Notes under the pieces: generated by a model
The model's input: the letters and a program-made list of their open reading frames with translations, nothing else
Told to the model about the DNA's origin: nothing
The model's database searches: none
Part shown: positions 1 to 35,400 of the stretch, piece by piece
Layout of the letters: every line of letters starts with the position of its first letter
Position numbering within the stretch: the first letter of the stretch is position 1
Program-made: the position numbers and the translations under genes
Source: a virus
Taxonomy: Duplodnaviria; Caudoviricetes
Virus record (IMG/VR): IMGVR_UViG_3300013131_001394
Coordinates: 1-55,206 of that record
Strand: one strand, 5' to 3'
Length of the DNA: 55,206 bases

Positions 1-1146
1 CGTTGGTATGCTGAACGTAAGGAAATGCAGGCTAAACTTAAAGATGCTATTAAGGCCGAAAACAAGATTGAGGAAGAATATTGGGATAAGCGCCAGTTGG
101 TTAAGAAGATTAATCTTAACTCCTTATACGGTGCTATTCTTAATGTTGGTTGTAGGTTTTTCGATGATCGTATCGGTCAATCTACCACACTTACAGGACG
201 CCAGATTGCCAAACATATGGCTAGTAAAATCAATGAAGTCGTCACTGGAGAATACGACCACGTTGGAAAAGCAATTATCTACGGAGATACAGATTCCGCC
301 TACTTCTCAGCCTATACAAGTCTCAAAAACGAAATACAAAAAGGCGAAATCCCCTGGGACAAAGAAACAGTTATCAAAATCTACGACAGTGTTGCAGAAG
401 AAGTAAATTCAACATTCTCTCAATTTATGTTGGATGCATTTCATTGTCCTAAGAGCAGAGGCGAGGTAATTAAAGCAGGTAGAGAAATCGTGGCAATCAA
501 AGGTCTGTTTATCACAAAGAAACGTTATGCTGTTCTATACTATGATAAAGAAGGTAAAAGATTAGACATAGAAGGAAGTCCAGGTAAAATCAAGGCCATG
601 GGGCTAGACCTCAAACGCAGCGATACTCCAGAATTCATGCAGAAATTCTTAGAAGAAATTCTAACCCGTGTACTAAATGGGGCAGAAGAAAAAGAAATTC
701 TTGAACGTATTCAAGAGTTCAGAACTGACTTTAAAGGTAGGCCAGGCTGGGAGAAAGGTAGTCCCCGGCGTGCTAACAACATTACAGAATACGGCGAAAA
801 AGAAAAGAAACTAGGTAAAGCCAATATGCCTGGGCACGTTCGTGCTAGTATTAACTGGAATACTCTACGTAGAATGCATGGAGACAAATACAGTATGCAG
901 ATTGTAGATGGCATGAAAGTTATTGTCTGTAAACTTAAACATAATCCTCTCGAATATGCTTCAGTGGCCTATCCCGTAGATGAACTACGACTACCTAAGT
1001 GGTTTCAAGACTTACCTTTCAATCACGAAGAAATGGAAAACGTTATTATTAATATGAAAATCGAAAACCTAATCGGAGTGTTGGAATGGGACCTAGAATC
1101 AACACAGGAAACAAATACGTTCCAGTCATTATTCAGTTTTGACTAA
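1..1146 (+). CDS. Family B DNA polymerase (T4 gp43-like), C-terminal part, truncated by the window edge
   Basis: Frame is open from base 1 (RWYAERKEMQ...). Motif B KKINLNSLYG, motif C YGDTDS, and KKRY are present. Confidence 0.95.
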   Translation, partial: RWYAERKEMQAKLKDAIKAENKIEEEYWDKRQLVKKINLNSLYGAILNVGCRFFDDRIGQSTTLTGRQIAKHMASKINEVVTGEYDHVGKAIIYGDTDSAYFSAYTSLKNEIQKGEIPWDKETVIKIYDSVAEEVNSTFSQFMLDAFHCPKSRGEVIKAGREIVAIKGLFITKKRYAVLYYDKEGKRLDIEGSPGKIKAMGLDLKRSDTPEFMQKFLEEILTRVLNGAEEKEILERIQEFRTDFKGRPGWEKGSPRRANNITEYGEKEKKLGKANMPGHVRASINWNTLRRMHGDKYSMQIVDGMKVIVCKLKHNPLEYASVAYPVDELRLPKWFQDLPFNHEEMENVIINMKIENLIGVLEWDLESTQETNTFQSLFSFD

Positions 1147-2300: not shown

Positions 2301-3828
2301 CCTTTCACCCTTACAAAGAGATTACGCTGTATTTTTACCAGCCTTAAGCAGTTTTTACAGCACCTATGTCAGTAAACAACAGCATGAAGAATTTGTACCT
2401 AAAGACAGAATCCCACAAGGGTTTGATCGTGGTATAGAAGGAATGAATTTCCTTAATCCTGAGCAAGGATATTTTACATACAAGTACGGACTGTTCTCCG
2501 CAGGCCATGCTCAACTAGATCTTAATAAAAGTGCTACACAAGAATCAATGGTACAACGTCGAAATCGTGCTAATACAATGATACTAGGAGATTCGGGAGG
2601 ATACCAGATAGGTAAAGGTGTTCTAAAGTTTGACTGGTTAGATTTTGAAGGACCTAAAGCAAATAAAGTAAGACATAGTATATTAGAATGGCTAGAACAT
2701 ACAGCCGACTGGTCTATGATGTTAGACGTTCCTACCTGGGCATGTGATCATGTACACAGTCCTAAGACAGGTCTTAAAACTTTTCAAGATTGCTTAGATA
2801 AAACTAAATTTAATAACAAATATTTTTTAGATAACAGATTAGGAAAGACAAAATTCTTAAATGTATTACAAGGAAGTGACTGGGAAACTGCCGAAGAATG
2901 GTATAACGGTGTCAAAGAATTTAGCGACCTTTCAGGAGAATATGCAGGCAGAGAAGCAGAAGGATGGGCATTCGGAGGCGCTAATATGTGTAAGATGGAC
3001 GTTACACTAAAACGTCTAATTACTTTACGCGAAGACGGCCTGTTAAAAGGAAAAAACTGGATTCACTTCTTAGGTACTGCTCAATTAGACTGGGCTTGTT
3101 TTTTAACCAGTATTCAACGACAACTTAGAAAGCATATTAATGAAGAAATTACCTTATCTTTTGACTGCGCCTCACCGTTTATCGCAACAGCAAACGGACT
3201 TGTCTACACGAACGCTCAACACACCACAAAGCGTTGGGCTGTTATTATGGACAAAGCCCCAGATCTTAAAGCCCTCGCAGGAAAAGACTTTCCTTTCCCT
3301 TTCGAAAGCGAAATAGGTAGAAGACTTACTGTAGGTGACATATGCCATTATGCACCGGGCATGTTAAATAAAATTGGCAAAGAAGGCAAAACTTCATGGG
3401 ATAGTTTTAGTTATGCTCTAATGATGGGCCATAATGTATACTGCCATATTGTTGCTGTGCAACGTGCTAATCAATTAATGGACATAGAAATAACTAAGTC
3501 GCAACCTAACTGGAAATTCTGGAAAAAAGTTAAAGCGGACGATAAGAGCGATGAGTATAGTGACTGGGTTCCTAGAAATGTGTTATACTTCGATAGGTTT
3601 GTAAAAGAACTTTTTGAAACTAAAACAAAACAAGAAGCATTCGATATGATAGATCAAGCAAAAGCATTTTTACTCAGTATGGAAGGTGCTAGAGCAGGCG
3701 GGTGGGCTGCTGAAAACACCTTTAATAAAATCTTTACCGTGGAAAATATAACTAAGTCTACAGAAATAGACCTAGAAAATCCAGAAGATCCTGAATTACG
3801 TAAACTGGAAGATTCACTTAATGCATAA
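2278..3828 (+). CDS. dpdA: DpdA-like 7-deazaguanine DNA transglycosylase (TGT fold)
   Basis: TGT motifs in the correct order: DSGGYQ, MMLDVP, VLQG, GWAFGG, IHFLG, SFDCAS, GHN. Lacks the CxCxxC zinc site of tRNA TGT. QueE and a T-fold gene are nearby. Confidence 0.85.
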   Translation: MMSNPPVNLSPLQRDYAVFLPALSSFYSTYVSKQQHEEFVPKDRIPQGFDRGIEGMNFLNPEQGYFTYKYGLFSAGHAQLDLNKSATQESMVQRRNRANTMILGDSGGYQIGKGVLKFDWLDFEGPKANKVRHSILEWLEHTADWSMMLDVPTWACDHVHSPKTGLKTFQDCLDKTKFNNKYFLDNRLGKTKFLNVLQGSDWETAEEWYNGVKEFSDLSGEYAGREAEGWAFGGANMCKMDVTLKRLITLREDGLLKGKNWIHFLGTAQLDWACFLTSIQRQLRKHINEEITLSFDCASPFIATANGLVYTNAQHTTKRWAVIMDKAPDLKALAGKDFPFPFESEIGRRLTVGDICHYAPGMLNKIGKEGKTSWDSFSYALMMGHNVYCHIVAVQRANQLMDIEITKSQPNWKFWKKVKADDKSDEYSDWVPRNVLYFDRFVKELFETKTKQEAFDMIDQAKAFLLSMEGARAGGWAAENTFNKIFTVENITKSTEIDLENPEDPELRKLEDSLNA

Positions 3829-4660
3829 GGCACTTGTGGTAGGCCTAGGAATGGGTCTACAGTATAAACAATGGTTAGATAAACTTTCATTTGTTGTTAC
3901 AACTGTAGATCCTGACCTAAATAAAAAGGCAGACTTTGAAGACATAGAATCATGCCTTGCTGTACATAACAAATTCGATTTAATTTATATAGGTACTCCT
4001 AACTACACGCACGAACCTATTGCTAGGAAATTGGCCAATCATACCAGAATACTACTGATAGAAAAACCAGGATTTGAAACTCACACCCACTGGTTTAATT
4101 TTGTAAAAGAATTCAACCAGACTAGAATAATGATGGTAAAGAATAATCAATATAGACCAGAACAAGATATATGGCGTGACATGGCTGCTCGCAGTGATAA
4201 AGTATATGTGGTATGGCAACGAGAAAAGGGCATACCTTCGAGCCCGTGGTTTATAGATCCAGCAAAAAGTTACGGCGGAGTAAGTAGAGACCTGATGCCT
4301 CATATGCTAAGTTATTTTACTAACTTTACAAACTATTCAAATAGCATAACAACTAGACGACAAAAAAAAGATTTACTCGACATAGGCATTGACACATGGT
4401 GTATAATGGAATATACAGCAGCAAATGATAAAAAAACTGAATGGATATTATTTACTGACTGGCAAAACGAAAGTTATGACAGTGCTAGCATCGAATTCAT
4501 AATAAACGGGCATAGTCACATATATGACTTAGGTGCGCTATGTCCTAGTGAACCTTACTTAGATATGATTACCGACTGTTTGAAAAACGTAGATAATGAT
4601 AATTTTTGGAATGAACAACTAGCACAGGATGTTTGGATACACCAACAACTAGAACTATGA
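3821..4660 (+). CDS. Gfo/Idh/MocA-family NAD(P)-dependent oxidoreductase
   Basis: ALVVGLGMG Rossmann start, TPNYTH, LIEKP, GGVSRDLMPH. Confidence 0.85.
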   Translation: MHKALVVGLGMGLQYKQWLDKLSFVVTTVDPDLNKKADFEDIESCLAVHNKFDLIYIGTPNYTHEPIARKLANHTRILLIEKPGFETHTHWFNFVKEFNQTRIMMVKNNQYRPEQDIWRDMAARSDKVYVVWQREKGIPSSPWFIDPAKSYGGVSRDLMPHMLSYFTNFTNYSNSITTRRQKKDLLDIGIDTWCIMEYTAANDKKTEWILFTDWQNESYDSASIEFIINGHSHIYDLGALCPSEPYLDMITDCLKNVDNDNFWNEQLAQDVWIHQQLEL

Positions 4661-5577
4661 AAGTAAATTTACTAGCAACAAACGGACAAGGGCATTTTTA
4701 CGAAACTGAATACGAATGTCCAGAAACCGTTGATAATGGGATAATTGTAAAAAACATAATGACTGGCGTATGTACAAGCGATGTCGCGATGATGAAGGGC
4801 GAGTTCGGTCCTCTGCCACTGCATATGCAAGGACATGAAGGTCTGGGTCAGGTTGTAAGTGTAGGCAATAATGTTTACCAAAAAGTAAAAGTAGGAGAAT
4901 ACGTTGCTACTAGAGGAGAACCTGCCTATGCCGATTACTATCCAGTTAAAGATGGGCAGTTCGTTGTCGTCCCCGAAGCACATCCTAGGTATATTATCGA
5001 ACCTGTAGCATGTGGCATAAACATCGTTGAAGGCGAGTTAATGGAAATAAAAGGACGAAGCCTTACCTTACATAATCCTAAATTGTTAATTATCGGAAGT
5101 GGGTTTTTGTCTTATATTGCATATAAAACATTAAGGCTCAACAATATAGCATATGAAATTGATGTAATAGGTAAAAGCAATTTAGATATATGGCAAAAAG
5201 AAAATGTTATTTTGCAAGATAGTCCAGATAAAAATTATGAAGTAGTCATCGTGTTAAAAGAAGGTATAAAGTTTTTAGAAAATCCAGAACTGATTAATGA
5301 AAATGGCCTACTAGTTGATGCTGTAGGTCGTAATATATCTAAAAAAGAAAGCGAAAACATGCTTTGGAAGTCTGTTACAACTAGTAGACCAAGCCCTAGA
5401 AAACCTATGTTTGACTTATGTATGGAACAAGCAGTAAAATGGATAGAATCGGATCAATTAAATGTTGATAAATTCTGGACAAGAAGTTATAATAGAACAA
5501 CAGAATGGCAACAGGCCTTCAACGATGGTTTAAACAGACCAGTAGGTTACAGCAGAGGATATATAACATGGCCTTAA
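4657..5577 (+). CDS. Zn-dependent medium-chain (MDR) dehydrogenase
   Basis: GVCTSD and GHEGLG catalytic Zn ligands, EPVACG, IIGSG. No structural-Zn Cys lobe. Start placed at the ATGA overlap 4657-4660. Confidence 0.85.
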   Translation: MKVNLLATNGQGHFYETEYECPETVDNGIIVKNIMTGVCTSDVAMMKGEFGPLPLHMQGHEGLGQVVSVGNNVYQKVKVGEYVATRGEPAYADYYPVKDGQFVVVPEAHPRYIIEPVACGINIVEGELMEIKGRSLTLHNPKLLIIGSGFLSYIAYKTLRLNNIAYEIDVIGKSNLDIWQKENVILQDSPDKNYEVVIVLKEGIKFLENPELINENGLLVDAVGRNISKKESENMLWKSVTTSRPSPRKPMFDLCMEQAVKWIESDQLNVDKFWTRSYNRTTEWQQAFNDGLNRPVGYSRGYITWP

Positions 5578-6086
5578 ACACAGAAGAACGTCAGGAAGTA
5601 GTTTACTTTACAGGGTATGAAGTAGAGCATACTATATGTCATGGCATGTTTACATTATTTGTAGTTGGAACTCCGCCGTTAGAAGAAATTTTAGAACAAG
5701 CCAAAAGAGAAAATGTTAAACAGATTTACTTTGGCACCAGTCAAAGTTTTAATCCTAAGTCACAGAGTAGCGAAGAATATAAGCCTTGGGATACTGTAAT
5801 ATTAGGATGCTTGAATGCCGGGTACTGGGTAACTTTAGATTTTGACGTTAAGCATATTGAAGGAGTTCACGATTCTGGATATTGTGAACATAACCGCTTT
5901 GTTCCTATGATTAGTGTAAAATTACCTTATATAGAACTCTTGAACTATAACGCAACCTTAAAATTAGATGATTTGACATGGGGTAAAACTAATCCCGGTG
6001 TATGGACACATCATTTACAATCATTAATGACTAGGGACAAATATACTTATTGGGATCAGTATACCCAGGATACGCAGATTACTTAA
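5568..6086 (+). CDS. Hypothetical protein in the deazaguanine cluster
   Basis: Start MALNTEER at ATG 5568 after GAGGA, overlapping the MDR gene end; 172 aa. Confidence 0.75.
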   Translation: MALNTEERQEVVYFTGYEVEHTICHGMFTLFVVGTPPLEEILEQAKRENVKQIYFGTSQSFNPKSQSSEEYKPWDTVILGCLNAGYWVTLDFDVKHIEGVHDSGYCEHNRFVPMISVKLPYIELLNYNATLKLDDLTWGKTNPGVWTHHLQSLMTRDKYTYWDQYTQDTQIT

Positions 6087-7045: not shown

Positions 7046-7276
7046 ATGGCACTATCTGCTAGTATTCAAAAAACCCTTCGTTTCAAACCAGAAGTTCACA
7101 AAATCTTCGATGATCTAGAAGCATGGCACGATCATTGCAGGTTTGAACTGATGGACTTTAATCCTGCCCATCTTTACAAATCTAGAGAGTGGAAAGAGTT
7201 TAACAAAACTAGGGAGTATCTAGAGCGTAAAGCAAGACGCGAGTCTAAACAAAACAAAAAGAGCCATAATGGCTAA
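7046..7276 (+). CDS. Hypothetical protein
   Basis: 76 aa ORF within the operon, overlapping the GT start. Confidence 0.7.
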   Translation: MALSASIQKTLRFKPEVHKIFDDLEAWHDHCRFELMDFNPAHLYKSREWKEFNKTREYLERKARRESKQNKKSHNG

Positions 7277-8339
7277 AATCTTTCTAGTAGACTTAGAAAG
7301 TGTAGAGACCAGATATACAGGACAATGGAAAAGTCATGTTCCCGAAATTCTCAAGACTAAAGGACATGAGGTTCACGTTATCTCTGGTCCTACGGATATT
7401 CCTAGTGCCACTACTCCTGGCGCTTTTCTCAACTTTGGTGGCACTAACATATATAAGTCTAGTCAAGTTGAACAGATGGGCAGATTATTTTGCCAGGGAT
7501 CCGTTAAACCTGGCGACCATTTTATTTTTACTGATGCTTGGCATCCGGGGATCATAAACTTAAAATATATGAGTGAACTATTACAGACGCCTGTAAAAAT
7601 TCACGCATTATGGCATGCCGGATCATATGATCCTCAAGACTTTTTGGGTAGGCTTATTGGAGATGCTCCGTGGGTAAGACACGCTGAGAAAAGTTTCTTT
7701 CACGCTATAGATCATAACTACTTTGCCACTAACTTCCACATTAATATGTTCGGTAAGAACTTGTTAGGCAAAGGCGGATACGATCCATCAGCTAATATAA
7801 CTAACAAAGTTGTAAGATCTGGATGGCCAATGGAATATATGGAGTATACATTATCTCCATATAAGGGTATGAAGAAACGTGACCTAATTTTATTTCCACA
7901 TCGTATAGCACCAGAGAAGCAAGTTGAGATATTTAGAGATTTGGCATTACTACTTCCTCAATATGAGTTTGTAGTATGTCAAGATAACGCACTAACCAAA
8001 CATGAATACCATACCTTACTAGGACAATCTAAAATGGTGTTCTCAGCTAATCTACAGGAAACACTAGGTATTAGTTGTTATGAGGGTGCCCTAGTAAATG
8101 CTATTCCTTTTGTTCCAGACAGGCTAAGTTATACTGAGATGTATTACGAACAGTTCAAATATCCTAGCGAATGGACTCAACACTGGGATTTATATCTTGT
8201 CCATCGTTCAGATATTTGCTATACTATCATTACTATGATGAATAACTACGAGAAACACGTTCATTATATAAGTAAACAAGCACAAGATTTAACTGAACAT
8301 TTTTTTTCCGCTAACCAACTATTCGATAACCTAAACTAG
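7269..8339 (+). CDS. GT-B (GT4-like) glycosyltransferase
   Basis: FPHRIAPEK, QETLGISCYEG (E-x7-E), VPDRLSYTEM. Confidence 0.85.
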   Translation: MAKIFLVDLESVETRYTGQWKSHVPEILKTKGHEVHVISGPTDIPSATTPGAFLNFGGTNIYKSSQVEQMGRLFCQGSVKPGDHFIFTDAWHPGIINLKYMSELLQTPVKIHALWHAGSYDPQDFLGRLIGDAPWVRHAEKSFFHAIDHNYFATNFHINMFGKNLLGKGGYDPSANITNKVVRSGWPMEYMEYTLSPYKGMKKRDLILFPHRIAPEKQVEIFRDLALLLPQYEFVVCQDNALTKHEYHTLLGQSKMVFSANLQETLGISCYEGALVNAIPFVPDRLSYTEMYYEQFKYPSEWTQHWDLYLVHRSDICYTIITMMNNYEKHVHYISKQAQDLTEHFFSANQLFDNLN

Positions 8340-8348
8340 GAGTTCACT

Positions 8349-10385
8349 ATGAAACTCAAAACACTTGCAACTTGTATAGCATTGGCCTATGGTTCCCTTC
8401 ATGCACAAGTACAAACTGGAGCATGGCTAACTACTGAATATGATAGAGGTAGAACTTTAAGTTCTATTAATGCTGCAACGGCATATTCCAGAGGATTTAC
8501 CGGTAAAGGTAGCACTATTGCTATTATTGATTCAGGCATTGATTTAAAATCACCAGAATTTCAAAATAGAATTAAGGCTGTATTTGATTTTACCAGTTCC
8601 GGATCTGCTAACGATACATTAGGTCATGGCACCCATGTTGCTGGTATTGCTGCTGCTGCAAAAAATAATATAGGAACTCATGGCGTAGCCTTTAATGCAG
8701 ACTTGCTAATTGCAAAGGTTACCACAAGCGGATTAGTTACAATGGCTACAGCAAACAAAGCTGTCGCTTGGGCTAATAGTTATAATGCAGATGTAGCTAA
8801 TCTAAGTTTAGGCTTTAGCCTTAAGCAATCTACAATTGCAGCTCAGTTAGTAAGCCCAGGTGTTTACAAAACAAATGTAACTAACACAGGAAAATATCTA
8901 GGTGGACTAGACGTTAATAGTTGGAAAACTGCTACTAACGGTGAAATGGTATTAGTTGTTGCCGCAGGTAATGATTCTACACCATGGTCAAGTTCGTTGA
9001 GTCAACTTGCAACTGCTGTTGATGCGAATGGTAACCTAATGTTGGGTGGTAGAGTAATTGTTGCAGGAAACTGGAACAGTCAAGGTGTAAGAAAAACTAC
9101 TACGGTTAATGGTAGACCTGTTTTTACTACTGCATATCAAACAGGTCCTAATAATAATGGTGCTGCCCAACTATGTATGGTAATGGTAGGCACAGTGTGT
9201 CAAGACAAATTTAAGGTTAGTGATTTTTACCTACTCGCACCTGGAACTGGTATAACAAGCACTTATCCTACTACTATTAACAAAAACGGTATGTTGACGT
9301 TAACAGGCACTAGCCAGGCTGCTCCAGCTATATCAGGTGCTGCTGCTATCATTAGAGAAATGTGGCCACAAATGACTGGGTCTAATGTTGTTAAGTTATT
9401 ATTAGTTACAGCAAATAAAAACATAGAAGGTTATAATGTTGTGGCACATGGTCAAGGACTTTTAGATCTTGATAGAGCAACCAGACCGGTAGGTAGTCTA
9501 GGTATTCCTACAACTGGAAGATTGTCAGGGCCACGTAGTCAATCTGTCGATCCTATATTGGTTACAGGTGGTTCCGCTAGCACAGGTGGACTGGGTAGTA
9601 TCGTTGTTTTAGATGACTTTGATAGAGATTTTGGGGTTAAAGGTAAAACATTCACAGCGCACAAGATTAGTAAGGAATTCAACCCTAAACAAGCATTTAT
9701 GCCATATGAATCAAAAAACAACTACAGTCTTTTCAATAACTATAATCAAAGATTACATGCAGAAGCAGCGGATATTTCTTTGGCAGTTTACCAAGACACA
9801 AATTCTGCTTTACAGGTGCCTGGTATGATTGAGATGTCTTATAAGGTAAAAGACTTTAAGTTTACTACAGCACATTTTACTGAACAGGCAACATGGCTTA
9901 ATAACAGCCTGCTAGGTATGAATAGAGAAAGCAATACATTAGTATTCGGCCTAGCCTATGAAAAAGATGTAGGTTCAAATACAAAAACATTCATTAGTGC
10001 CATGCATGGAACCACTAGTATTAAATCGTATAGCGATAAAGTTTCAGGGTTGAATACTGCTTACAGTTATAGTTGGAACGCAGGGCTTGAGCACAGTTTA
10101 AATAAAACAAACTCAATAGGCTTTATGGCATATCAGCCAGTGACTGTTTATAACGCACAGGCCAATGTTAATATGCCTGTAGGACTAGATCAAAACTTTA
10201 ATGTTATTCAAGGTACTAGAGCGAATCTAGCGGCAGATGTTAAAGAAACAAGGCTAGGGCTTTATTATAAACTTAGCGAAAAGTACACACAAGCAAGTGC
10301 ATTTATTGAAACAAGGCAAAATTACAGAGGACAAGATGGCATTAGAGACCACGCAGCAGGACTACAATTTACCCGTCAATTTTGA
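8349..10385 (+). CDS. Secreted S8 subtilisin-like protease with a C-terminal beta-barrel-like domain
   Basis: Signal peptide MKLKTLATCIALAYGSLHA; triad IDSGID, GHGTHVAG, GTSQAAP; oxyanion AAGN; amphipathic strands ending in LQFTRQF. Confidence 0.9.
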   Translation: MKLKTLATCIALAYGSLHAQVQTGAWLTTEYDRGRTLSSINAATAYSRGFTGKGSTIAIIDSGIDLKSPEFQNRIKAVFDFTSSGSANDTLGHGTHVAGIAAAAKNNIGTHGVAFNADLLIAKVTTSGLVTMATANKAVAWANSYNADVANLSLGFSLKQSTIAAQLVSPGVYKTNVTNTGKYLGGLDVNSWKTATNGEMVLVVAAGNDSTPWSSSLSQLATAVDANGNLMLGGRVIVAGNWNSQGVRKTTTVNGRPVFTTAYQTGPNNNGAAQLCMVMVGTVCQDKFKVSDFYLLAPGTGITSTYPTTINKNGMLTLTGTSQAAPAISGAAAIIREMWPQMTGSNVVKLLLVTANKNIEGYNVVAHGQGLLDLDRATRPVGSLGIPTTGRLSGPRSQSVDPILVTGGSASTGGLGSIVVLDDFDRDFGVKGKTFTAHKISKEFNPKQAFMPYESKNNYSLFNNYNQRLHAEAADISLAVYQDTNSALQVPGMIEMSYKVKDFKFTTAHFTEQATWLNNSLLGMNRESNTLVFGLAYEKDVGSNTKTFISAMHGTTSIKSYSDKVSGLNTAYSYSWNAGLEHSLNKTNSIGFMAYQPVTVYNAQANVNMPVGLDQNFNVIQGTRANLAADVKETRLGLYYKLSEKYTQASAFIETRQNYRGQDGIRDHAAGLQFTRQF

Positions 10386-10614
10386 TTATGATACAGAATG
10401 GCCCATGTCAGATTATTATGATGACGGTCCTATTACCATCGATGATCCTATTGTAGAATATAAAACTTTTGAACAGGTAAGTTGGTGGAAACTTAAACAA
10501 ATGTTAGAACGGTGGCCTGCTATGCATAAAAGTTGGCAGGCATTTATTATTGACTATAATGTATGCTTGGCTACCTTAAGAGCCGAGGAACAACACGATG
10601 ACATCCCTTTCTAA
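10336..10614 (+). CDS. Hypothetical protein
   Basis: ATG 10336 after GAGGA (alternative start 10405); ends in acidic DDIPF. Confidence 0.55.
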   Translation: MALETTQQDYNLPVNFDYDTEWPMSDYYDDGPITIDDPIVEYKTFEQVSWWKLKQMLERWPAMHKSWQAFIIDYNVCLATLRAEEQHDDIPF

Positions 10615-11071
10615 ATTTTTTCTTAACACTCTAGAACGCATGGGTAGGAAACGTATTGTTCTAGATAGAGAAAGTTCAGAACCTTATCTAGAACGTTATT
10701 ATGTCTTTTTAAAAGATAGAGATACATTTCCTTTTAATATCTTCATTCATAAATTTTTAAAATCAGATCCAGATGATGTCCACGATCATCCCTGGTCTTA
10801 TGCTACACTTATTCTCAAAGGCGGATACTGGGAATTCGTTCCTGTATTCAACGAACAAGGAGAAAAAGTTGCAGAAACAAAACATTGGCGGGCACCTGGT
10901 CATTTTCGTATTAGTCCTGCTACTAGTTTTCATCGTATCGAACTAGAGCCTAACGTAGACTGCTGGACTATGTTTATGCCAGGACCTAAGCGTAAGGAGT
11001 GGGGCTTCCTTGTAAATAACGAGTGGATTCATAACGAACAATACTTAGAGGAGAGACGAAATGCCGCGTAA
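10598..11071 (+). CDS. Cupin-like protein
   Basis: HDHPW...ILKGGYWE...FHRIEL metal-binding cupin pattern. Confidence 0.7.
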   Translation: MTSLSKFFLNTLERMGRKRIVLDRESSEPYLERYYVFLKDRDTFPFNIFIHKFLKSDPDDVHDHPWSYATLILKGGYWEFVPVFNEQGEKVAETKHWRAPGHFRISPATSFHRIELEPNVDCWTMFMPGPKRKEWGFLVNNEWIHNEQYLEERRNAA

Positions 11072-11330: not shown

Positions 11331-11732
11331 ATGCACATGTCAAGTAACAAAATTTTTGACGGCCCTGATGAGTTGGAAGATTCACATCCGCCGTGGACAG
11401 GAATATATCGTGAAGACTTTCATGTTATAGTTTATAGAGACAAATACCCTGTAACAGAAGGACATTTACTGTTTGTTCCTAAGTATAACTCAATCAGTAT
11501 TTTAAATCAAGCATTTGAAGATGCTGTCAGATACGGTAAAAAGCAAGTTAAAGACGGCAATTGGGATGGATTCAACATAGGACTAAACTACGGAGAAGTC
11601 GCTGGTCAAACTGTAAATTGGCCTCACATACACCTTATTCCAAGACGCAAAGGTGATGTAGACGATCCTATAGGTGGCGTACGTAATATTATCCCAGGTA
11701 AAGGTAATTATAAAAAAACTAATCAAACTTAG
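11331..11732 (+). CDS. HIT-family nucleotide hydrolase
   Basis: DKYPVTEGHLLFVPK, GFNIGLN, AGQTVNWPHIHLIPR. Confidence 0.9.
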   Translation: MHMSSNKIFDGPDELEDSHPPWTGIYREDFHVIVYRDKYPVTEGHLLFVPKYNSISILNQAFEDAVRYGKKQVKDGNWDGFNIGLNYGEVAGQTVNWPHIHLIPRRKGDVDDPIGGVRNIIPGKGNYKKTNQT

Positions 11733-12618
11733 TTATTGCCTGATCTCCTTCATTGCTACAGACTATCATACCGCATTTATGGGGAGTATTAGGCGGATGC
11801 CATCCATCATGCCATATATTTCCTAATGATCTATTGTTACAAGTAGCACCAGATACCCAACCTTGATGTCCTATGTACAAGGTTTCAATTCCCATATTGC
11901 ACATCTTACCTGTATAACTAGGATTGCTATTCAACATATCTTGATATCTACCATGCCATGTTGTTTCTTCAAAATATTCTTTTTCAGACACTAGAGTTTT
12001 TTCTCTAGGCGGAGGACTATTTTTTAACCAAGGCTTAGGTTCTTCCATTAAAGTTAATTGTTCATTGGTATATGAAACAAACAACCCAGCACTTGTATCA
12101 GCATTTATGTATAATGCCTGCTTATTAACCCATATACCGTGACGTTCTTCAAAATCGCTTATTCGTTTTATATCTTGATCAAACCTAGAAGGATGTACAG
12201 GTGCATTTAGGTATATAGGCTTGTCATTTTTAACAAATAACTGAACTATATAATCCATTAGAGATTCATTTTGCCAGTAATGATAGGTTAAATGTATGCT
12301 ATCAACATTAGGTTCGATAGCCCACCAGTCCATCCATAATTTACCACCGTTAGTATGCAAAGTTAATTTGTTTTTATCTGCCTTACATGATTTTAAGATG
12401 GTAACAATATCATTTAAATCTAAAGGTTCACCGCCATCAATTGTCCATTCTATAGTTCTACCTAGGTCTAAATAATTGTTTACTATCAAATCGGCTATTC
12501 TAATATATTCTTTAGTTTCAGGAGGTTCACCACCGCCTCTAAACTTTGTAGGACAATAATCACATTGATAGGAACAATAATCATTCAAGGCCCAGGTTAT
12601 TCTAGTTATATTGTTCAT
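11719..12618 (-). CDS. Radical SAM protein with a C-terminal Cys-rich (SPASM/twitch-like) region
   Basis: CSYQCDYC, GGEP, TNG; C-terminal CNMG...ATC...CGMIVC. Confidence 0.85.
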   Translation of the reverse strand: MNNITRITWALNDYCSYQCDYCPTKFRGGGEPPETKEYIRIADLIVNNYLDLGRTIEWTIDGGEPLDLNDIVTILKSCKADKNKLTLHTNGGKLWMDWWAIEPNVDSIHLTYHYWQNESLMDYIVQLFVKNDKPIYLNAPVHPSRFDQDIKRISDFEERHGIWVNKQALYINADTSAGLFVSYTNEQLTLMEEPKPWLKNSPPPREKTLVSEKEYFEETTWHGRYQDMLNSNPSYTGKMCNMGIETLYIGHQGWVSGATCNNRSLGNIWHDGWHPPNTPHKCGMIVCSNEGDQAITKFD

Positions 12619-26486: not shown

Positions 26487-29400
26487 TTATAGTTCCTCTA
26501 GCGGCTCATCGTCTTGATCTGTTAGGGCAAATCCTCCCTCATTAGTTAGGGCAACATCACCTCCATAGTAATACTTATCTGGTAATTCTGCAGGTCTTGC
26601 CTGTAAGAATCTAGCAGGTACAGTGGTACTGGTCATTAATGAATAGGTAGATGTCGAGTTAACTGTATCATTCCATACATCTATAGCATCAAATTCTCTT
26701 TTTACAATTACTAATTTAATGCTTTGTTGTACACCTTCTTGTAAATTTAAATTGAGATACTGGTTCTGTATAGTAAATTCTGGTGGTACATAATTAATAC
26801 CACTATACTCATACCCGTTAAATGCATCATACTTGTCTGAATTAGTATAAATCCAGACTTGATTAGTTGATGTAATTACATAGGCTGTGCCTAACACTGT
26901 GGTAGTAGGAAGATATGATACTTCGGCTAACCATCTATTATTCCTTGCTTCTTGTGAATTTTTAATATTATTAAGGATTTCGGTATCTGTATCAATTAGG
27001 TTATTATAGTTACCTACCCAATAATCTAACCCTCCTTGATCGGGATATCTATTTAAATATCTCAGATAATAATTTGTAACTGTATTTGCATATGATGCAG
27101 GATCTGGTACTGTGGGTGATAACGGTGCACCATAATCGGGCGCATTGGGTATAGGCAAGAAATAAGGTGTGTCGTAGGTGAATTCTATATCCTGTTTGAA
27201 AGTGGCATTTTTATTTAAAATACGTCCACCATAAACTACTGTAACTTGATCCTCTAACTTTATAGGATTAGGTATAGAAGTCGTTGTACTAATTTCGTTT
27301 AGTGTAATACCATCATTAGTTACAGTGCTATATGATACAGGATTACCTAAATAATCAGTCGCTAGCGTAGATGTAGTAAATGACAATGTACTAATATAAT
27401 AAGTTGTGCTATTAGCCAGTGTATAGTGTGTCTGTTTTAATATTCTTTCAGAATACGGTACTGTTTGTTGCGATCCTTGATCAATAACTTTGGTATTCTC
27501 ATGCGAATAAAAACTAGGAGCAGTTCCTAAAGTTGCTCTCCTTAACTGACTTAACACATTAGATCCTACTTTGAAAAACTCAATACGTTCACCGTCTACA
27601 AGAATTACGCCAGGAAGATTCTTTTCAATATCCGGACTGGTCAACACATCTGCATTGTCAACATGTATTTCTGTATCATATACACTTAGTGGTCTGGTTA
27701 GATATGTAGAATTTTCCTTACTTAATCTCTTAAAATGTGTTCTATGGAAAATATCATGGAATATTCTATAACCTAATATAGTTGATGCTAATTTTTCGCT
27801 ACTAAATGTTATAATTGTAATCTCATTAGTTTCATTATGATAGAATTCATCTGAAATTTCTACTGTTACAGAATCATCTAATATCTCATAATCATAATGA
27901 TTTACTAAAGGTATACCGTCAACTATTACCCATACATAATTGCTATCAAGGGCAGGTCTACTTATCACATATCTTCTAGACGGATTACCACGGAATCGCT
28001 CTGTACGCATCAGCATATCGTCGTGATTATTGTAGGTTATAACTTTCAATTCATAAGGGTATGTAAACGATCCTGGATTTATGATTGTCAATTGACTACC
28101 AACAATATCATAATCGTATGTATATGAACCTTCCTGCGCTACAGCAGCAATTGCTATCACATCATCCTTAACTAATGGAACTAAAATATTATATGTATTA
28201 GCACCTGCTGCACTGTAATCAAAACCTCTCCTTAATTCTTTTCCATTTAGGTACACTCTAACCTGACTTAATGATCCGTAATTTACACCAGTTGTATTAA
28301 GTGTGTAAGCGGTAACTAAAGAATTTATAACTTTAAAATAACTTATATCAGGAGGTCTTAGGTATCTACGGGTACCGTTTTGGTTAACTTCAACAATTGT
28401 CTGTGCTACAACAGGTTCTATTATTCCCGGAGGATTCGCCAATGTCCAAGATGTTTCCGAAACATTTGTAACTTCTATAATTTCTTCATTTATTTCATTA
28501 AAATATCTTTGTGCTGTACCGAAAAACCATGCTGTAACGGTAGAAGTAGTAGTATCTACCAAATTATATACATTAACAGCAGCCCTGTTACTATTTTGAT
28601 TGGCCACAGTAAGCATGTATCCGTAATCAGTTGTAGTGGTAACTTCACTTATCGCAATGCCATTAACAGTAACATATGCACTCTTAACTGTACCAAATTG
28701 CGCAAGACTTACTAATTGAACTGTGCTTGTGCTACCTGTAAAACTTGTGGTATCTATAACACCTGCTTCTTTAAAGTCTCTACCGCCTCCTACACTAACA
28801 ATACTCACTCCTAATATACCTTTTATGGTTTGAGGAGGAACAATTATTTCATTCAATGTCCAATTAATGTTAAACTCGGTACTGGTTGTAAAATTAGTTG
28901 TAGAGTTATAGGTCATTAACCTGTTTTCAAAAGTTACCACTAGGCTGGAACTATTAGGAGGAGTAATACTTAATTGTCTGGTACTAGTTGATCCGGGGTA
29001 GATAACATAATAACTATTAACTACCACAGGCGCACCTTCAGGATGCTTGGTATAAACATTGATACCTACGCTTTGATTAATTTCACCTGGAACTAATTCT
29101 TCTGGAGCATAAGTGTGATTGGCACTGATAAATGACTCTCCATCTATAGTAATATCTTCAGGATTTATTCCTAGGGCTGCTACTCTTGTTCCAGTCGTCC
29201 AGCCGCCACCTTCTATAGCACTGTCTAAAATAGTAGTCTGTGTATCATATGACCAAAACTCTATACTAGCGATGCTAGTAGTATTTGTATATGTTCCTTC
29301 TACGAAAATAGTAGATATTGTAGCAGTTAACGGTAATAGGGTAGCAGTTGTAAATGTCACAGTACGAGCACTAGTGTTAACAGATTGAACTCGCGGATTA

Positions 29401-32400
29401 ATATTAAAAAATTGATTATCTAATTGCTGTCTGCTGGCACTAACTATGTTAACAAGTTGCCCAGGTTTTATACCCGTAGTGGTAGTTAATGTAAGCGTCG
29501 TGGTTCCTGAACTAGCAGTATTTGCGACTTCAATGTTTGTGTAAAATGCTATATCGTCGGCCCAGTAACTAATACCATAAGCACTAGTAGTTTCATTTCC
29601 TATGCGCTGGTCTGTTAGCCAGTTAATACCCCACTTAGTTGTGTAATTAAAAGGAAGACCTTCTACCACAGTCTTAGGAAACTCTATGCCATCCATTAAT
29701 TGTGACAATTCGTTTCCTGGCATACCGTCTGTAGGGCTATAGTATTCTAAAATACGATCAACGGCATTTAATAACGCAACATTCTTTTTATAATTTACCG
29801 TTAAAACTTGATTAGTCTTAGGCACATAGTTAATGAATATTATTTTATTATATGTCTTTTGATAATCAGTATTCGCACCTATATAATCTTTATAATAAGA
29901 AACAGTGTAGTCTGAACTTAGTACCAGTTGCCCGTCTAAAGTGATTTGAATTTGTGACTTATCAGGAACTGCAATCCATGATAATATGAATTCAGTATCT
30001 GCACCGTTACATAAAAATCTATCCTCAGTATCAATATCAAGAACTTCAGGTGCTCTAGAAGTTCTATCAAATTTCATACCTAAGGTAATTTCTCTTACGG
30101 TATCATTCGTCAATACTGCATAGCCTGTGGCTACCTTTGTAGGAGAACCTCCTCCTGATATTACAACTAACGGAGGCGTTGTATATCCAGATCCGTAGTT
30201 TGTAACTTCAAATCCTACTACAGATCCTGATCTAATAAATGCCTTAGCGGTAGCACCAGATCCTAAATCACCAGTCTGTGTAACTAGCGTTACTGTAGGT
30301 GTTTCTGTGTATCCTGTCCCCGGATCGGCTACTCTAATTTCTCCTACATAATATGTATAATTGTCAAGCCAAGATTTCCATGGGTACGTCAACATCCATG
30401 TATTAGTAGCAGTGAACTCAGAGGCAGACTGACTAGCCGGTATTGTTAAAGTATTAAATCCGTTTTTAGCATCATCATAATAAGGTGGAAAATCAAAATC
30501 TGTAATATAAGTGGCACTAGGTTCTACTTGATTATACCTTGTTGTAAAGTTTCTTATTTGAGTATGATACGGTTTAACTTCCTTGATATATGATTCATAA
30601 TATTCACTGTTTTGCAATTTATAGGTAGATCTTTGATCTAACGATCCTGCATTATTTGTTACATTAATAAAAGATGTTTTAAACGCCCAGTCCAGACGTT
30701 TTTGCTCTGTAAGAGCATATTTAACTGCCTGGAAAAATAATAAATTGTAATGTACTTTTAGATCATTAACAAAAAGATCTTCTTTTACTGCTTGTAGAAT
30801 ATTGTATGTTTCTTGATAAATTTCCGCAGACTCATCATTCCAGACTGTATCTTTAATTTTTATTGTACCGTTTTCACTATATACAATATTGTATCCTAGA
30901 CTAAATGTTCCTAAAATATTATCACTTATTTTTTCAAGAATTACATAGTTACCTTGCCCGTTATCATTTATCTTGACATACTGTCCTTGAGATATATCCT
31001 CTATCGTTTTTAACTGATATATTTCATCAAGAGTATATGCATAATCCACAAACTTGTTGTATGTCGAATCCAACCAATCAATATAATCCCAGTAAAGAGT
31101 TGTGTTATAAGATTGAGTTTCAGACAGTTCCCAGCCTAGAGTATACCCCTTATACTCGTACCTTGACCATTTACCATCTTGCGTACTATCTACTTCTACA
31201 ACTGCTGCAAAAGGTCTTACCGATAAACTAGGAGCACTAGCAAACCCAGACCCTGCATTTAAAATAATCACATCAATAACTTTTCCGTTAGCATCAATAA
31301 CAGTTTTTAATTCTGCACCGTTGTTATTATTCACTGTGATTAAGGGCGCATTAATATACCCATCTCCTGGTTCAATTATTGTTACACCAGTAATTTTACC
31401 GTTAGAAACAGAACAACTAATCTGTGCCTGTACTTTAGAATTAATATCAATAAAGTCTAACCCTTCTAGATCTTCTAGAATTATATCATATAATCCATCA
31501 GAGACATGAGGTATAGGCTCTTTAGATAGTAAATTTCGTAGACTATATTGTTCTGTTATACGCTGTGAGGATAAGACAGAGTTGATATATTCAACAACGT
31601 TGCGTAGGGCAATAAACCTATCTGCAAACAATGTTTGTCTAGGTCTAATACTAATACCATAACGTTCTCTAGCAGTAAGTGCAGGATCAGGAACCGGATT
31701 GCCTAAACTATCCCTTCCAAGCAAACTATCAAACAACTTTTTCTCTAACATCGCATTAGGCATCTGATTGGCAGATCCTTCTTGCATAAGTAACCACTCA
31801 GTATGTCGAGGTATGGGGTTGTTAATTATATCAGTTGCTATATTTAGGCTTATTCTATCATCTATTAACAGTGTACCTACGTTGGCAAGCGACAATGCAT
31901 TTTGATCCATTATTTGTCCGAACCTTAGTCCGTAAGCCGCAGGGTTTTCTATTATACTTGCCAATTGAACTGCTGTAGTTCTTCTGTTCTTTTTATTAGG
32001 TAGTATTATTCGATTCTTTACCCAGAAATAATAGACATTTGTAAATCCGCCTGTGGTAGGATTATAAACCTGCTTAACACTAAGCACATCATTCAAAGGA
32101 TGTTTAGGCTGTCCGCTTATCCCGTCCGCAAGTCCTTGAGACGTATCTGCTATAACTGCCCACTCACTAGGTAATAATTCGCTACCTACCCATTCGTAAA
32201 TGTCAATTGTGGAACCGGGAAATAATCTACCCCAATTATTTTTCCTATAACTTAGTTCGCCTTGCTCATACCATACGTATTTTGCATTGCTAGTATCCCA
32301 CCATATTTCACCGACATGATCATCTAACCAATTTGTTTCAGCATCAGTAACGGTTAATTCATTGCCTATAGAATAAACAGCAGGGTCTATATTAGACTTA

Positions 32401-35400
32401 TATTTTATATCTTCTTCGGCAACACCGGGTATTTTACCTTTTAAAGGGTCTATAATATCAAGATGTTCTAAAACTTCATCATTAAATGTATCATACAATG
32501 TTAATTTTTGTATGGTATTAATATCAACTAGTTGATCTTTACTACGTAAAATGTTCCAACTTTTATCTGCTACATTTTTCTTTCTGTATTGATAAAATGC
32601 ACTGTCTGGTAAGATACCGTCTATTACAGTTTTATATGCAGGTGCACCTACATATATAGAATCATCATTTACTGCTAGGCTAAATCCGTAATTAGTTCCT
32701 GTATTAGGATCTAATAAACTCATTTCATCTGCTAACTTAAACGTGTTCAAATACCTATTATAGACGTATGCACTTCCACTAAACTTAACAGTATCAAAAA
32801 ATGTTGTCGAGCCTGAATCAAATGTTGTACTATCGGTTAAATCACTATTAACATCTTTTACATATTTTGTTCCGTATATACTTAATGAATTTAACAAAAG
32901 TGATTCATATCTATCAAAAGTTAATTGTAAGTTTCTATTTGTACCTTGTGCTGTGACAACAAGTTCAGTATTATCTGAATTAATTCCTATTGCCTTACCG
33001 AATTTCATACCGGGACTACCGACAGGGTTTTGTATTATCGAATCTAATTCAAAATGTACAGCATCAGTTAATGTATTTTTATAAACTGCTACCTTACCGA
33101 ATGATTGATCATAGTTTCTAGAATCGGGTGCTCCTACAAAAATATACTGCCCATCTTTACTAACTGCAACTGACTCTCCAAACTTAGCATTACGTTCAAA
33201 CGGACTAGTTAAAGTTTGCAGATATGTGATATCGGTAGTGGTATACACACTAACAAAACCTGTACCTGTGTAATATCCAGGAGCCGCAACAGCAGTAACT
33301 TCGGCCAGATTAGATCCTTGTATAACTTGACCCCATCGTGATCCTACATTTACATCAAAGGGCGCTGTGATCTGTTTAACATAAGTCACATTTATCTGAG
33401 TAGAGGCTGTGGTAAAATTATAAACATAAACAGATCCTGTACCTAGTGTAGATGTAAAGGGAGCGCCTATCATTAAAACCTGTGTAGATCCGGTAGACAA
33501 ATTACTTGTATAAATGCTAGAACCAAATCTTTCATAACTTGCAGGTGTAGGACTTATTAGAGCACCTTGACTAACTTCTGTACCTGTGCCTTCAAACGTA
33601 CTAATTTTTACCAAACCTTCTTCTAACCTTGCGCTGTAAGAACCTGTATTCCCGGCAAAACGTAAACCACCGGATGAATATGACTCTCTAGTAAAACTTA
33701 CTAAAGGAGCACCTGCAAAAACGGTGCCGAATGAAGAAGTACCAAGTTGATTTGTGTGATAGGCTAACCCTTGTCCGAAATTAGTGTATCCTCCGGGCTG
33801 ATAATATGTTGTAACAAGATTATTAACCGTCCAACTGGAAATTAATTCAATGTCTGTATCCGATTCATGAAATAAAAATACAGTTCCGGTATTTGTTCCT
33901 GTACCGGAAGCACTTACAACAAAATTTCCTAAATTATCTTTACCGGTTATTTTATAGCCTAATTGTGTAGTAGTGTTAACGCTAACAGTGTTTAGACCTT
34001 GACTATTATAGTTTTTGATCTTTGCTACAACTTGCCAGTTATCTGCTCCGTCATCTATCAACCAATTCTTAGCACCGTATGGTAATTTTAATAAGAAATT
34101 ATCCCTAGGTAACTTATCAAAATTATCAAACTTAGCACTTTGAAACTTGAAAACAAGTCCCTGAGTTTCAGCAGTAAGACCTGAAAAGAAGAATGTAGAA
34201 GTGGTGCTTATTACAAAAGTGTTAATTGTAGGTACCTCTACAACTTGATAAACTCCGTTAACTGTATCACTAAATTGACTAATACTAACAATATCGAACT
34301 TAGAAATGTTATGTGCTTTTGTCGTTTTAAAGATATATCTGTCTGTAGAACCTTCCTGTAAAGTTATGCTACTTAACTTGGAACTACCTAATACATACCT
34401 AAAAACATCCCAGTCATTATTATTTTTATTAGCAATCCAGACATAGTCATCGATTAACAAACTTCTGTTATTGCTAATATCGGTGATAGAATTTGTATTG
34501 TAAGCAGTGTAATCTACATCGTCAAATCTTACGAAACCTGCCGTTTCTAATTTTAATATGTCTGGGTCATTAGTTGTGATAAAAGTGCTCGACGATATAT
34601 AGCCATCATAACTTATTAATAAATCAGTCTGTGTTGTATAATAAATTAGACTTTTATTATCGATTTCAATTTCTTCATTAAATGTTACAATTTGCGGATT
34701 ATCAACAAATTCGCCTTCTTTTAACTTAACCTCGAGTTCTTTATATGTCTCAAACGAACCGAAGTGTCCTATTCTAAATGCCCATTCTTCATTGTAACTA
34801 ATTTCACCTTGTAGATTATGAATAGCAGCCTTGGCTAATTTTTCAATAGCATTACGTGTACCTTTTTCTCTAATAAACCCTTGATAGAATTTGTATTGAG
34901 CAATAGGATTGGTAAAGATATTATTAAGATATGGACGAGGAGTATAACCTACCAGATGCTGAGCCATTCTTTGTTGGGCAGAATCAAAATTGTCAATGTC
35001 TAAACTATAGAAATCTTCAAACTGATTAATCTTATAGTCAAAATTAGGTAATAATTGTGCCACAGGCTTTTCGCCTAACAATACCCATTCAGTAAATGTA
35101 AACTTATCCGAACCTATAATATTATTTTTAGCAGTGTAATATTTTCCGTTAAATCTAACAACATCACTGGCATTGTAATTTGTGAACTTTTGCCAGTCAT
35201 TAATATATGCGGTGTCATAGACGAATCCAGGGCTAAAATAATCACCGTCCCAATCTCTAGTTCTAAATCCTGTCAATCTTACCCTACGCTGTCTATATCC
35301 TGTAGCAGTATCATATATTGTATCATTGAAGATTGTTGTATTATTAAGTACTATAGCATGTTCTTTTTGAATACTGTTTAAGGTAGCAAAGTAAAGACCA

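Follow-up and report, generated by a model that had tools for sequence, protein, structure and literature searches.

We have identified a family of glycosyltransferases (GTs) that is most likely a fixed component of a mobile 7-deazaguanine nucleic-acid modification module. The family was recognized from P0001, the product of a gene at positions 7269-8339 of a viral contig from IMG/VR, whose 55,206 bases, referred to here as the window, are estimated to make up ~15% of the genome. The source is a T4-like giant phage, and the window holds genes for a family B polymerase, gp25-like and gp5-like baseplate proteins, gp46/47-like proteins and a SegE-type endonuclease. P0001 is encoded close to P0271, a divergent transglycosylase with the fold of tRNA-guanine transglycosylase (TGT) and DpdA, and this pairing recurs in phages and bacteria. 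The C-terminal domain of P0001 is akin to that of QTMAN (GTDC1), which glycosylates queuosine in tRNA. On balance we favor a role for P0001 in glycosylating a 7-deazaguanine-type base of DNA.

The frame opposite the P0001 gene is riddled with stops, leaving the reverse strand closed. An initial annotation of the window had likened P0001 to QTMAN/GTDC1 on account of a C-terminal amino acid pattern, which matched the translation letter for letter: LFPHRIAPEK occupies residues 208-217 and PFVPDRLSYTE residues 280-290, and the remaining pieces EYHTLL, VFSA, ETLG and E272 were likewise verified. P0001 was aligned with 56 diverse full-length relatives (57 sequences, alignment A1). In A1, E272, P283 and E290 are invariant, and E264, G267, I268, L286, S287 and Y288 are at least 90% conserved, as are R212 and K217 of the first motif. 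Because its residues stay conserved across the 57 sequences, the pattern can be taken to exceed chance.

P0001 has at least 8000 relatives at E ≤ 1e-3 (all 8000 candidates scored by word search), and a search of 1.84 billion proteins clustered at 50% identity assigned 1132 clusters to its family, with E ≤ 1e-30 for 254. Searched as a single sequence against Pfam, PHROGs, NCBIfam and PDB sequences, P0001 gave no usable match (TnpV in Pfam, at E 0.18, being the only one), and it did not match Pfam Glycos_transf_1 (PF00534) at E ≤ 10. Glycos_transf_1 is matched at E ≤ 1 by 45 of the 57 family sequences, the best at 3.5e-8. A search of the ESM Atlas with P0001 returned only its own viral clusters, with 9 of 30 matches carrying PF00534 on 29% of their members, and the family profile found only weak GT matches among PDB sequences (8xsg, a 'putative glycosyltransferase', E 6e-5, and WlaC).

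The AlphaFold2 model of P0001 (predicted local distance difference test score, pLDDT, 94.8; predicted template modeling score, pTM, 0.92) displays the GT-B topology with two Rossmann-like domains. Its Foldseek matches at E ≤ 0.001 comprise 293 PDB chains; those at the top are BshA, BA1558 (a GT4 enzyme), glycogen synthase, MshA, PglA and a cyanobacterial tetrahydrobiopterin glucosyltransferase. VIA-align gave Z scores of 25.8 for sucrose-phosphate synthase (root-mean-square deviation 3.2, 316 aligned residues), 24.4 for BshA and 24.1 for MshA, all over residues 1-356; across the best 50 matches, likewise spanning residues 1-356, Z ranged from 20.8 to 25.8. The C-terminal F-F-S-A..L motif falls within a confidently modeled helix. 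An EX7E motif and an Arg/Lys pair in the C-terminal domain are what we take to be the usual GT4 residues, and by analogy with GT4 enzymes generally, R212 and K217 are likely the diphosphate-binding pair. The modeled fold, the structural matches, the Pfam matches of relatives and the conserved EX7E, R212 and K217 therefore identify P0001 as a predicted GT-B enzyme of the GT4 type, which is probably retaining and active.

Kinship with QTMAN was assessed with bacterial proteins carrying Pfam PF12038, named 'QTMAN_N', which was searched in 401 Pseudomonadota genomes (28 over the cut-off) and in control genomes (0 of 14). Twelve bacterial QTMAN_N proteins (360-435 amino acids, aa), referred to as QTMAN-like, served as positives, and 30 generic GT4 loci positive for PF00534, taken from five of the same genomes, served as controls. 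UniRef and NCBI name bacterial QTMAN_N proteins 'tRNA-queuosine alpha-mannosyltransferase (domain-containing)', a name by annotation, and the best 120 relatives of one such protein were, where named, all bacterial. The A1 profile recovered all 12 QTMAN-like proteins with hmmsearch (Z=1000) at 40.3-74.8 bits, with all 30 controls at 7.4 bits or below. In the reverse search, a QTMAN-like profile recovered all 57 A1 members at 20.9-52.8 bits (P0001 at 26.5), with controls at 7.5 or below. Comparison of A1 with single sequences by hhalign scored 79-109 for the 12 QTMAN-like proteins (97.0-98.5%) and at most 39.2 for the 30 controls (≤57%). Profile-profile comparison with 21 QTMAN_N proteins reached 99.25% (E 5.6e-20, 277 columns), and comparison of the C-terminal domains 99.5% (E 7.2e-23). 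The scoring stretch covers profile positions 212-327, from HR...EK through the EX7E region to P.VPdRLSY.E, where the bacterial QTMAN_N proteins read WNHRWEYDKGPE and ...P.AP.RLAYPE.

The N-terminal domain behaved differently. Against the QTMAN_N half it reached only 0.5% in hhalign, with a score of 16.1 that lies within the range of 23 generic GT4 N-terminal halves (8-20); PF12038 did not match P0001 and is absent among the 25 Pfam families listed for the 57 members. A maximum-likelihood tree of C-terminal halves was built from 19 of the 57 A1 sequences (every third), the 12 QTMAN-like proteins and 23 of the 30 controls (≤460 aa). In this unrooted tree, the result of a quick search, each of the two families forms one group (Shimodaira-Hasegawa-like approximate likelihood ratio test, SH-aLRT, 97 and 99), and one branch splits both from all 23 controls (SH-aLRT 91).

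Phylogeny, which the initial annotation had put forward as a check, thus places P0001 relatives and QTMAN-like proteins together against generic GT4 enzymes. The resemblance that it had claimed holds for the C-terminal domain, by profiles in both directions, hhalign and the tree, and does not extend to the N-terminal domain, which stands at the generic GT4 level. The structural comparison that it had also put forward proved uninformative: the top solved structures are generic (BshA, MshA, sucrose-phosphate synthase), and no entry described as QTMAN is among the best 50 matches. Since its N-terminal half carries no QTMAN_N signal, P0001 falls outside the QTMAN family by Pfam's defining domain. 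In GT-B enzymes the C-terminal domain mainly binds the nucleotide-sugar and the N-terminal domain the acceptor. The kinship accordingly speaks for common descent of the donor-binding half, and because that half is the QTMAN-like one, the donor of P0001 may be similar to guanosine diphosphate (GDP)-mannose. QTMAN itself is reported to use GDP-mannose on queuosine-34 of tRNA-Asp, a base already inside a polynucleotide (preprint 10.64898/2026.06.28.735034).

All eight bacterial QTMAN_N genes inspected stand alone among housekeeping genes, with no TGT-like neighbor. In two of these eight loci (L172, L174) the gene adjoins an endonuclease III-type (HhH-GPD) base-excision gene, and in L175 its neighbors are genes for a class I tRNA synthetase and for a protein with a match to Pfam TsaD (PF00814).

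Genomic context ties P0001 to deazaguanine chemistry. Two sets of loci were compared: the best 80 of 590 viral relatives (69-78% identity), 38 of which have at least 4 kb of flank on each side, and 40 loci from a scan of one genome per prokaryote species, with relatives 36-71% identical. All 38 viral loci with enough flank contain both the TGT-like gene and a gene for DpdL, a QueD-like protein. Many of the genome loci come from alphaproteobacterial isolates, where they lie on large contigs; the genera include Pelagibacterium, Devosia, Ochrobactrum, Methylobacterium, Magnetospirillum, Shimia and Sulfitobacter. A homologue of the TGT-like protein was present in all 28 loci of bacterial or metagenome-assembled genomes with at least 4 kb on both sides, at a median gap of 370 bp from the GT gene (maximum 3.1 kb); DpdL was found in 16 of the 28 and the polymerase gene polB in 3, leaving 25 without polB. 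The five genome loci without a TGT-like match are short or cut close to the GT gene. Gene order and strand of the module differ among loci. The pairing of GT and TGT-like genes is therefore more than inherited phage synteny.

Twenty-seven bacterial loci were resolved further. The TGT-like gene is present in every one, accompanied in 26 by DpdL and/or a small Vut-like open reading frame (ORF): 12 have the small-ORF cluster without DpdL, 8 DpdL only, 6 both and 1 neither. Three of four members of the small-ORF cluster that were scanned match Pfam Vut_1 (YhhQ-type transporter) at 24.7-31.9 bits (cut-off 27.2), and one gave no match. From the gene content of these loci, the minimal module is a TGT-like gene, a GT gene and a source of the base. 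Neighbors in the bacterial islands include integrases, a resolvase, GmrSD, HEPN, ABC-3C and AAA_15 proteins, and unknown proteins of 500-850 aa. These islands may constitute an undescribed DNA-modification or defense island. The idea that they are a recognizable Dpd or other known defense system was dropped: PADLOC found no match among 15 proteins (the GT, the TGT-like protein and 13 island neighbors). A MASE1 histidine kinase and a LuxR-type regulator occur in 13-15 of the 27 loci in alphaproteobacterial islands, as do unknown proteins of 260-895 aa (13 loci) and 568-599 aa (7 loci) that have no Pfam or PADLOC match.

The 516-aa partner P0271 matched nothing in Pfam, PHROG or NCBIfam. Its family is invariant at DSGG.Q, D150, H263.LG and D296, with three invariant Asp residues in all. 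The AlphaFold2 model has a pLDDT of 82.3, falling below 50 in the tail at residues 471-497, and the best 50 Foldseek matches are all tRNA-guanine transglycosylases (top E 4.7e-8); the family profile found a single non-significant match among PDB sequences, to an archaeosine TGT (E 0.62). P0271 is ~150 aa longer than tRNA TGTs and 41% identical to EST35_0316 of phage PA5oct. Since tblastn at E ≤ 0.01 did not find the phiST and ACP17 proteins, P0271 appears by sequence to represent a further TGT-like subfamily.

The poorly modeled tail of P0271 carries a peptide that resembles the C-terminus of the window's polymerase. The motif [STN]F..[LIM]F lies within the final 60 residues of 56 of 58 polymerases and 25 of 67 TGT-like proteins, and in none of seven other neighboring families. 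The C-terminal peptide of the T4/RB69 polymerase docks on the sliding clamp. By analogy, the P0271 peptide may be a clamp-docking peptide, and its being shared with the polymerase points to a base exchanger that acts at the replisome, on DNA rather than on tRNA. A docking peptide of this kind on the GT itself was also considered and was ruled out for this lineage (0 of 85 GT tails).

Cultured phages of distant lineages keep the GT in deazaguanine gene sets. The closest is Sinorhizobium phage Phosso (49% identity; beside FolE and QueE-like genes), followed by the PA5oct group (46%; beside TGT-like and QueE genes), ACP17 (35%; beside QueD, FolE and QueE), Xanthomonas phage X1 (25%; directly adjoining an annotated queuine tRNA-ribosyltransferase), the Synechococcus cyanophage BUCT-ZZ01 (25%; beside QueE, QueD and FolE) and BCSR5 (23%; beside QueE and FolE). 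FolE and QueD are adjacent to the GT among the ACP17, X1, BCSR5, BUCT-ZZ01 and Phosso sets. The BUCT-ZZ01 cluster also has a gene annotated as xanthine-guanine phosphoribosyltransferase between QueE and QueD (L006, 2093-2554).

In the phage collection, 18 records have both GT and DpdL, and another 10, three phiST records, phi13:1 and phi19:2 among them, have DpdL but no GT; in five further records, of PhiXhv-type phages, the GT match is no more than partial and distant (65% coverage). No GT of the P0001 family was found in phiST at tblastn E ≤ 1e-3, and phiST DNA is reported to carry plain 2'-deoxy-7-deazaguanosine (dDG; PMC10516641). The GT is therefore an add-on step outside base synthesis, because DpdL occurs without it in 10 of 28 phage records, phiST among them. 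DpdL is the proposed 7-carboxy-7-deazaguanine decarboxylase, with the signature LxxxHRHxF (Cui et al. 2023, PMC10516641). The window DpdL shares 56% identity with its ACP17 homologue and 32.5% with the phiST one, and tblastn matches it to the phiST DpdL at E 2e-6. ACP17 is named in the same source as carrying dpdL and dpdA, and expressing these two genes alone gave no product. The pattern in which PA5oct DNA withstands restriction enzymes points to a modified G, whose chemistry the preprint did not determine (PMC12191111).

We hypothesize that the module comprises a divergent TGT/DpdA-fold transglycosylase, the GT and a base supplier. In phages the supplier would be DpdL fed by FolE, QueD and QueE, and in bacterial islands DpdL and/or a Vut_1/YhhQ-like importer. 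The TGT-like enzyme would swap guanine in DNA for a 7-deazaguanine-type base, after which the GT would move a sugar from a nucleoside diphosphate sugar onto it, in the way that QTMAN modifies queuosine in tRNA. The product would be a sugar-bearing purine in DNA that could shield the genome against host nucleases. The initial annotation had proposed a DNA-acting or nucleotide-acting counterpart of QTMAN; gene context strongly favors it. Should DpdL remove the carboxyl group, N2 or even an electron-rich ring carbon (as a C-glycoside) may bear the sugar. We hold only tentatively the fuller claim that many large aquatic phages, cultured phages such as PA5oct, ACP17, Phosso and X1, and a set of alphaproteobacterial islands carry sugar-bearing 7-deazaguanine in DNA, made by a TGT-fold exchanger and then a GT that shares the ancestry of its donor half with QTMAN.

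Several points weigh against glycosylation of a DNA base by P0001. A sugar on 7-deazaguanine in DNA is a prediction from genes and models. Plain 7-deazaguanine, if that is what DpdL makes, has no hydroxyl group, so the sugar would have to go onto N2, O6, a ring carbon or an added substituent; the 193-aa protein encoded upstream of DpdL is a candidate maker of such a substituent. With no QTMAN_N likeness in the N-terminal domain, homology says nothing about the acceptor, a queuosine-like one included, and the QTMAN test rested on 30 controls from 5 genomes and on bacterial PF12038 proteins rather than on human GTDC1. The GT family lacks the polymerase-like tail and is acidic (median isoelectric point 5.7), unlike what would be expected of a DNA-binding enzyme. 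Being the closest relatives and of one lineage, the 80 viral loci cannot be treated as independent observations. FolE, QueD and QueC were not found in the 55-kb window, a small part of the genome. The PhiXhv relatives (24.5% identity, 65% coverage) have GlmS-like and BshB-like genes as neighbors, and no deazaguanine gene is annotated less than 7 kb away; in Xanthomonas phage PhiXhv-15 (L007, 4669-7903) the distant GT relative follows a GlmS-like aminotransferase and a BshB-like deacetylase.

The sugar-metabolism setting of these PhiXhv relatives would also suit a GT that serves another target, either envelope or virion glycans or a hydroxymethyl-pyrimidine as with the T4 alpha/beta-GTs, the deazaguanine link then reflecting shared descent of a gene block. 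This is improbable in our judgment. The pairing with the TGT-like gene persists in 25 non-phage bacterial loci with order and strand rearranged and a short median gap, which argues against it, even if the structural neighbors of P0001 are enzymes of small-molecule and glycan synthesis and the window has a second glycosyltransferase, of family GT17. T4 glucosyltransferase entries are absent from the best 50 matches of both Foldseek and VIA, and no hydroxymethylase is evident in the window, because its sole ThyA-like gene passes the thymidylate synthase equivalog cut-off (342.8 vs 327 bits). We give slightly less credence still to the TGT-like enzyme and the GT acting on tRNA, where a glycosylated deazaguanine at the wobble position would make them a functional analogue of TGT plus QTMAN. 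Both nearest characterized families, TGT and QTMAN, are tRNA enzymes, and the bacterial islands hold a Vut_1/YhhQ-like ORF, of a family that we take to import queuosine precursors. A canonical TGT is, however, already present in each of five host genomes searched, the phage module is part of a replication block, with DpdL, QueE and polB next to it, the tail of the TGT-like protein reproduces the C-terminal peptide of the polymerase, and the inspected bacterial QTMAN_N genes have no TGT-like neighbor. Related DpdL/DpdA3 phages have the base in their DNA (Cui et al. 2023, PMC10516641), and the restriction resistance of PA5oct DNA (PMC12191111) likewise argues for DNA.

A different order of events is unlikely, if less so than either of these: the GT would first glycosylate the free 7-deazapurine base or its nucleotide, and the enlarged TGT-like enzyme would then insert the sugar-bearing base. 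HuiG offers a precedent, being a GT4-type enzyme that attaches N-acetylglucosamine to a free preQ0-derived base (preprint 10.64898/2026.04.15.718813). The ~150 additional residues of the TGT-like protein, the acidity of the GT family, its lack of the tail found in its partner and its pairing with a base importer in bacterial islands would all fit such an order. The nearest family, QTMAN, acts on a base in a polynucleotide (preprint 10.64898/2026.06.28.735034), and phiST-type systems insert their base without any GT; both speak for glycosylation of the base after its insertion into DNA, the order that we prefer.

Table. Features of the window discussed in the text (positions in the window).
Feature	Position	Strand	Basis or remark
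Family B DNA polymerase, C-terminal part ending ...NTFQSLFSFD	25..1146	+	Pfam DNA_pol_B E 9.9e-19, phrog_262
Divergent TGT/DpdA-fold transglycosylase P0271, 516 aa	2278..3828	+	Fold search, invariant residues; predicted to act on DNA
ENTFNKIFTVE in low-confidence tail of P0271	3712..3744	+	Resembles polymerase C-terminal peptide (1114-1143, NTFQSLFSFD)
Two oxidoreductases, GFO_IDH_MocA and ADH_N-type	3821..5577	+	Pfam E 1.8e-6 and 1.3e-9
193-aa protein, travels with module in phages	5505..6086	+	No Pfam, PHROG or NCBIfam match
DpdL, QueD-like T-fold, 126 aa	6650..7030	+	LGTPHRHIF fits signature LxxxHRHxF (PMC10516641)
76-aa ORF	7046..7276	+	Overlaps GT start by 8 bases; weak relatives in same place in loci L008, L011, L013
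Glycosyltransferase P0001, 356 aa	7269..8339	+	Open frame, ATG start, GT-B fold, GT4-type, QTMAN-like C-terminal domain
Motif LFPHRIAPEK, residues 208-217	7890..7919	+	F209, R212, K217 at least 90% conserved; aligns with WNHRWEYDK of QTMAN-like proteins
EX7E (E264-E272), then PFVPDRLSYTE (280-290)	8058..8138	+	Family-specific stretch that QTMAN-like proteins also have; best-scoring aligned stretch
QueE-like radical S-adenosylmethionine (SAM) enzyme, 282 aa	12673..13521	+	phrog_2076, E 5.4e-52

Other genes of the window accompany the module to varying degrees. The 193-aa protein is encoded in 68 of the 80 viral loci and, with 29% identity, by ACP17, and is absent from all non-phage bacterial islands. 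The QueE-like enzyme is present in 34 of the 38 viral loci with enough flank, and its matches to the NCBIfam QueE models are far under their cut-offs (e.g., 57 vs 260 bits). The two oxidoreductases, which may tailor the sugar donor, occur in just 16 of the 80 viral loci and so are optional. Directly downstream of the GT gene lies a 678-aa subtilase (Peptidase_S8, E 2.3e-36; 8349-10385), which looks like an insertion peculiar to this contig, since a counterpart is missing from all 80 viral and all 40 genome loci. Further downstream are a cupin (phrog 'cysteine dioxygenase'; 10598-11071) found in 55 of the 80 viral loci and a HIT-family protein (11331-11732) found in 33, each in none of the non-phage bacterial islands, and a second radical SAM gene (11719-12618, minus strand) with weak viperin-like and MoaA-like matches (E 4.7e-7), found in 7 of the 80. 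The GT17-family glycosyltransferase (51730-52551, E 4.5e-31) is flanked by the recombination nuclease genes, gp47-like on one side and gp46-like on the other. A baseplate/tail-fiber block contains an ORF of 4572 aa (26487-40205, minus strand) adjoining ORFs of 1130 aa and 985 aa.

What is new in this system is a GT on a deazaguanine DNA module; deazaguanine modification of DNA itself is already known. A literature search, with supplements outside its scope, turned up no account either of a GT in deazaguanine DNA-modification clusters or of glycosylated deazaguanine in DNA. Eight 7-deazaguanine derivatives are described in phage DNA, none sugar-bearing, according to Cui et al. 2023, where the word 'glycosyl' does not occur (PMC10516641). 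If glycosylation of a 7-deazaguanine-type base in DNA by P0001 is true, it would help explain the missing product when ACP17 dpdL and dpdA were expressed alone (PMC10516641) and would identify the modified G of PA5oct, a therapeutic-candidate phage (PMC12191111). The product would be the first glycosylated purine analogue in DNA, and with the module a chemically new class of base would be added to those of DNA. Animal tRNA queuosine glycosylation and DNA deazaguanine glycosylation would then be two branches of one enzyme lineage, and QTMAN, so far an animal tRNA enzyme with uncharacterized bacterial relatives, would gain a prokaryotic and viral sister family. Given the great abundance of the GT family in metagenomes, such a base would, if real, be common in nature. 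The prediction is directly testable in phages already cultured. All known DNA glycosylation, to our knowledge, is on pyrimidines.

The T4 alpha- and beta-glucosyltransferases are GT-B enzymes of large lytic phages that place a sugar onto 5-hydroxymethylcytosine in DNA after replication; the acceptor here would differ, being a purine analogue rather than a pyrimidine. The phiST-type DpdL/DpdA3 systems resemble the present module in their QueC-free gene set, with the DpdL signature, a distant TGT-like transglycosylase and a QueE-like enzyme beside a polymerase, and ACP17, named there for dpdL and dpdA, also has the GT. They differ in that phiST lacks the GT and in that the 516-aa protein was not matched to phiST, so that membership in DpdA3 is not implied. 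HuiG of huimycin biosynthesis is also a GT4-type glycosyltransferase decorating a preQ0-derived 7-deazapurine, but its substrate is a free base of secondary metabolism, and its clusters were selected for the absence of dpdA (preprint 10.64898/2026.04.15.718813). The bacterial Dpd restriction-modification system (DpdA/B/C) is likewise a genomic-island module in which a TGT-fold enzyme puts 7-deazaguanine into bacterial DNA (PMC10164549), whereas the partners here are the GT, DpdL and/or the Vut-like ORF and unknown 500-850-aa proteins, with no PADLOC match. QTMAN/GTDC1 shares with P0001 the GT-B fold, the GT4 type and the motifs HR...[DE]K..PE, after the first strand, and S.al.[ED]..G....Ea...gc.P..P.RL.Y.E, and both are tied to a 7-deazaguanine base put in nucleic acid by a TGT-fold enzyme. 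The P0001 family differs from it, in the comparison with bacterial rather than human members, by having no detectable QTMAN_N domain, and whereas the eight bacterial QTMAN_N genes stand alone, the P0001 family adjoins a TGT-like gene wherever the flank sufficed.

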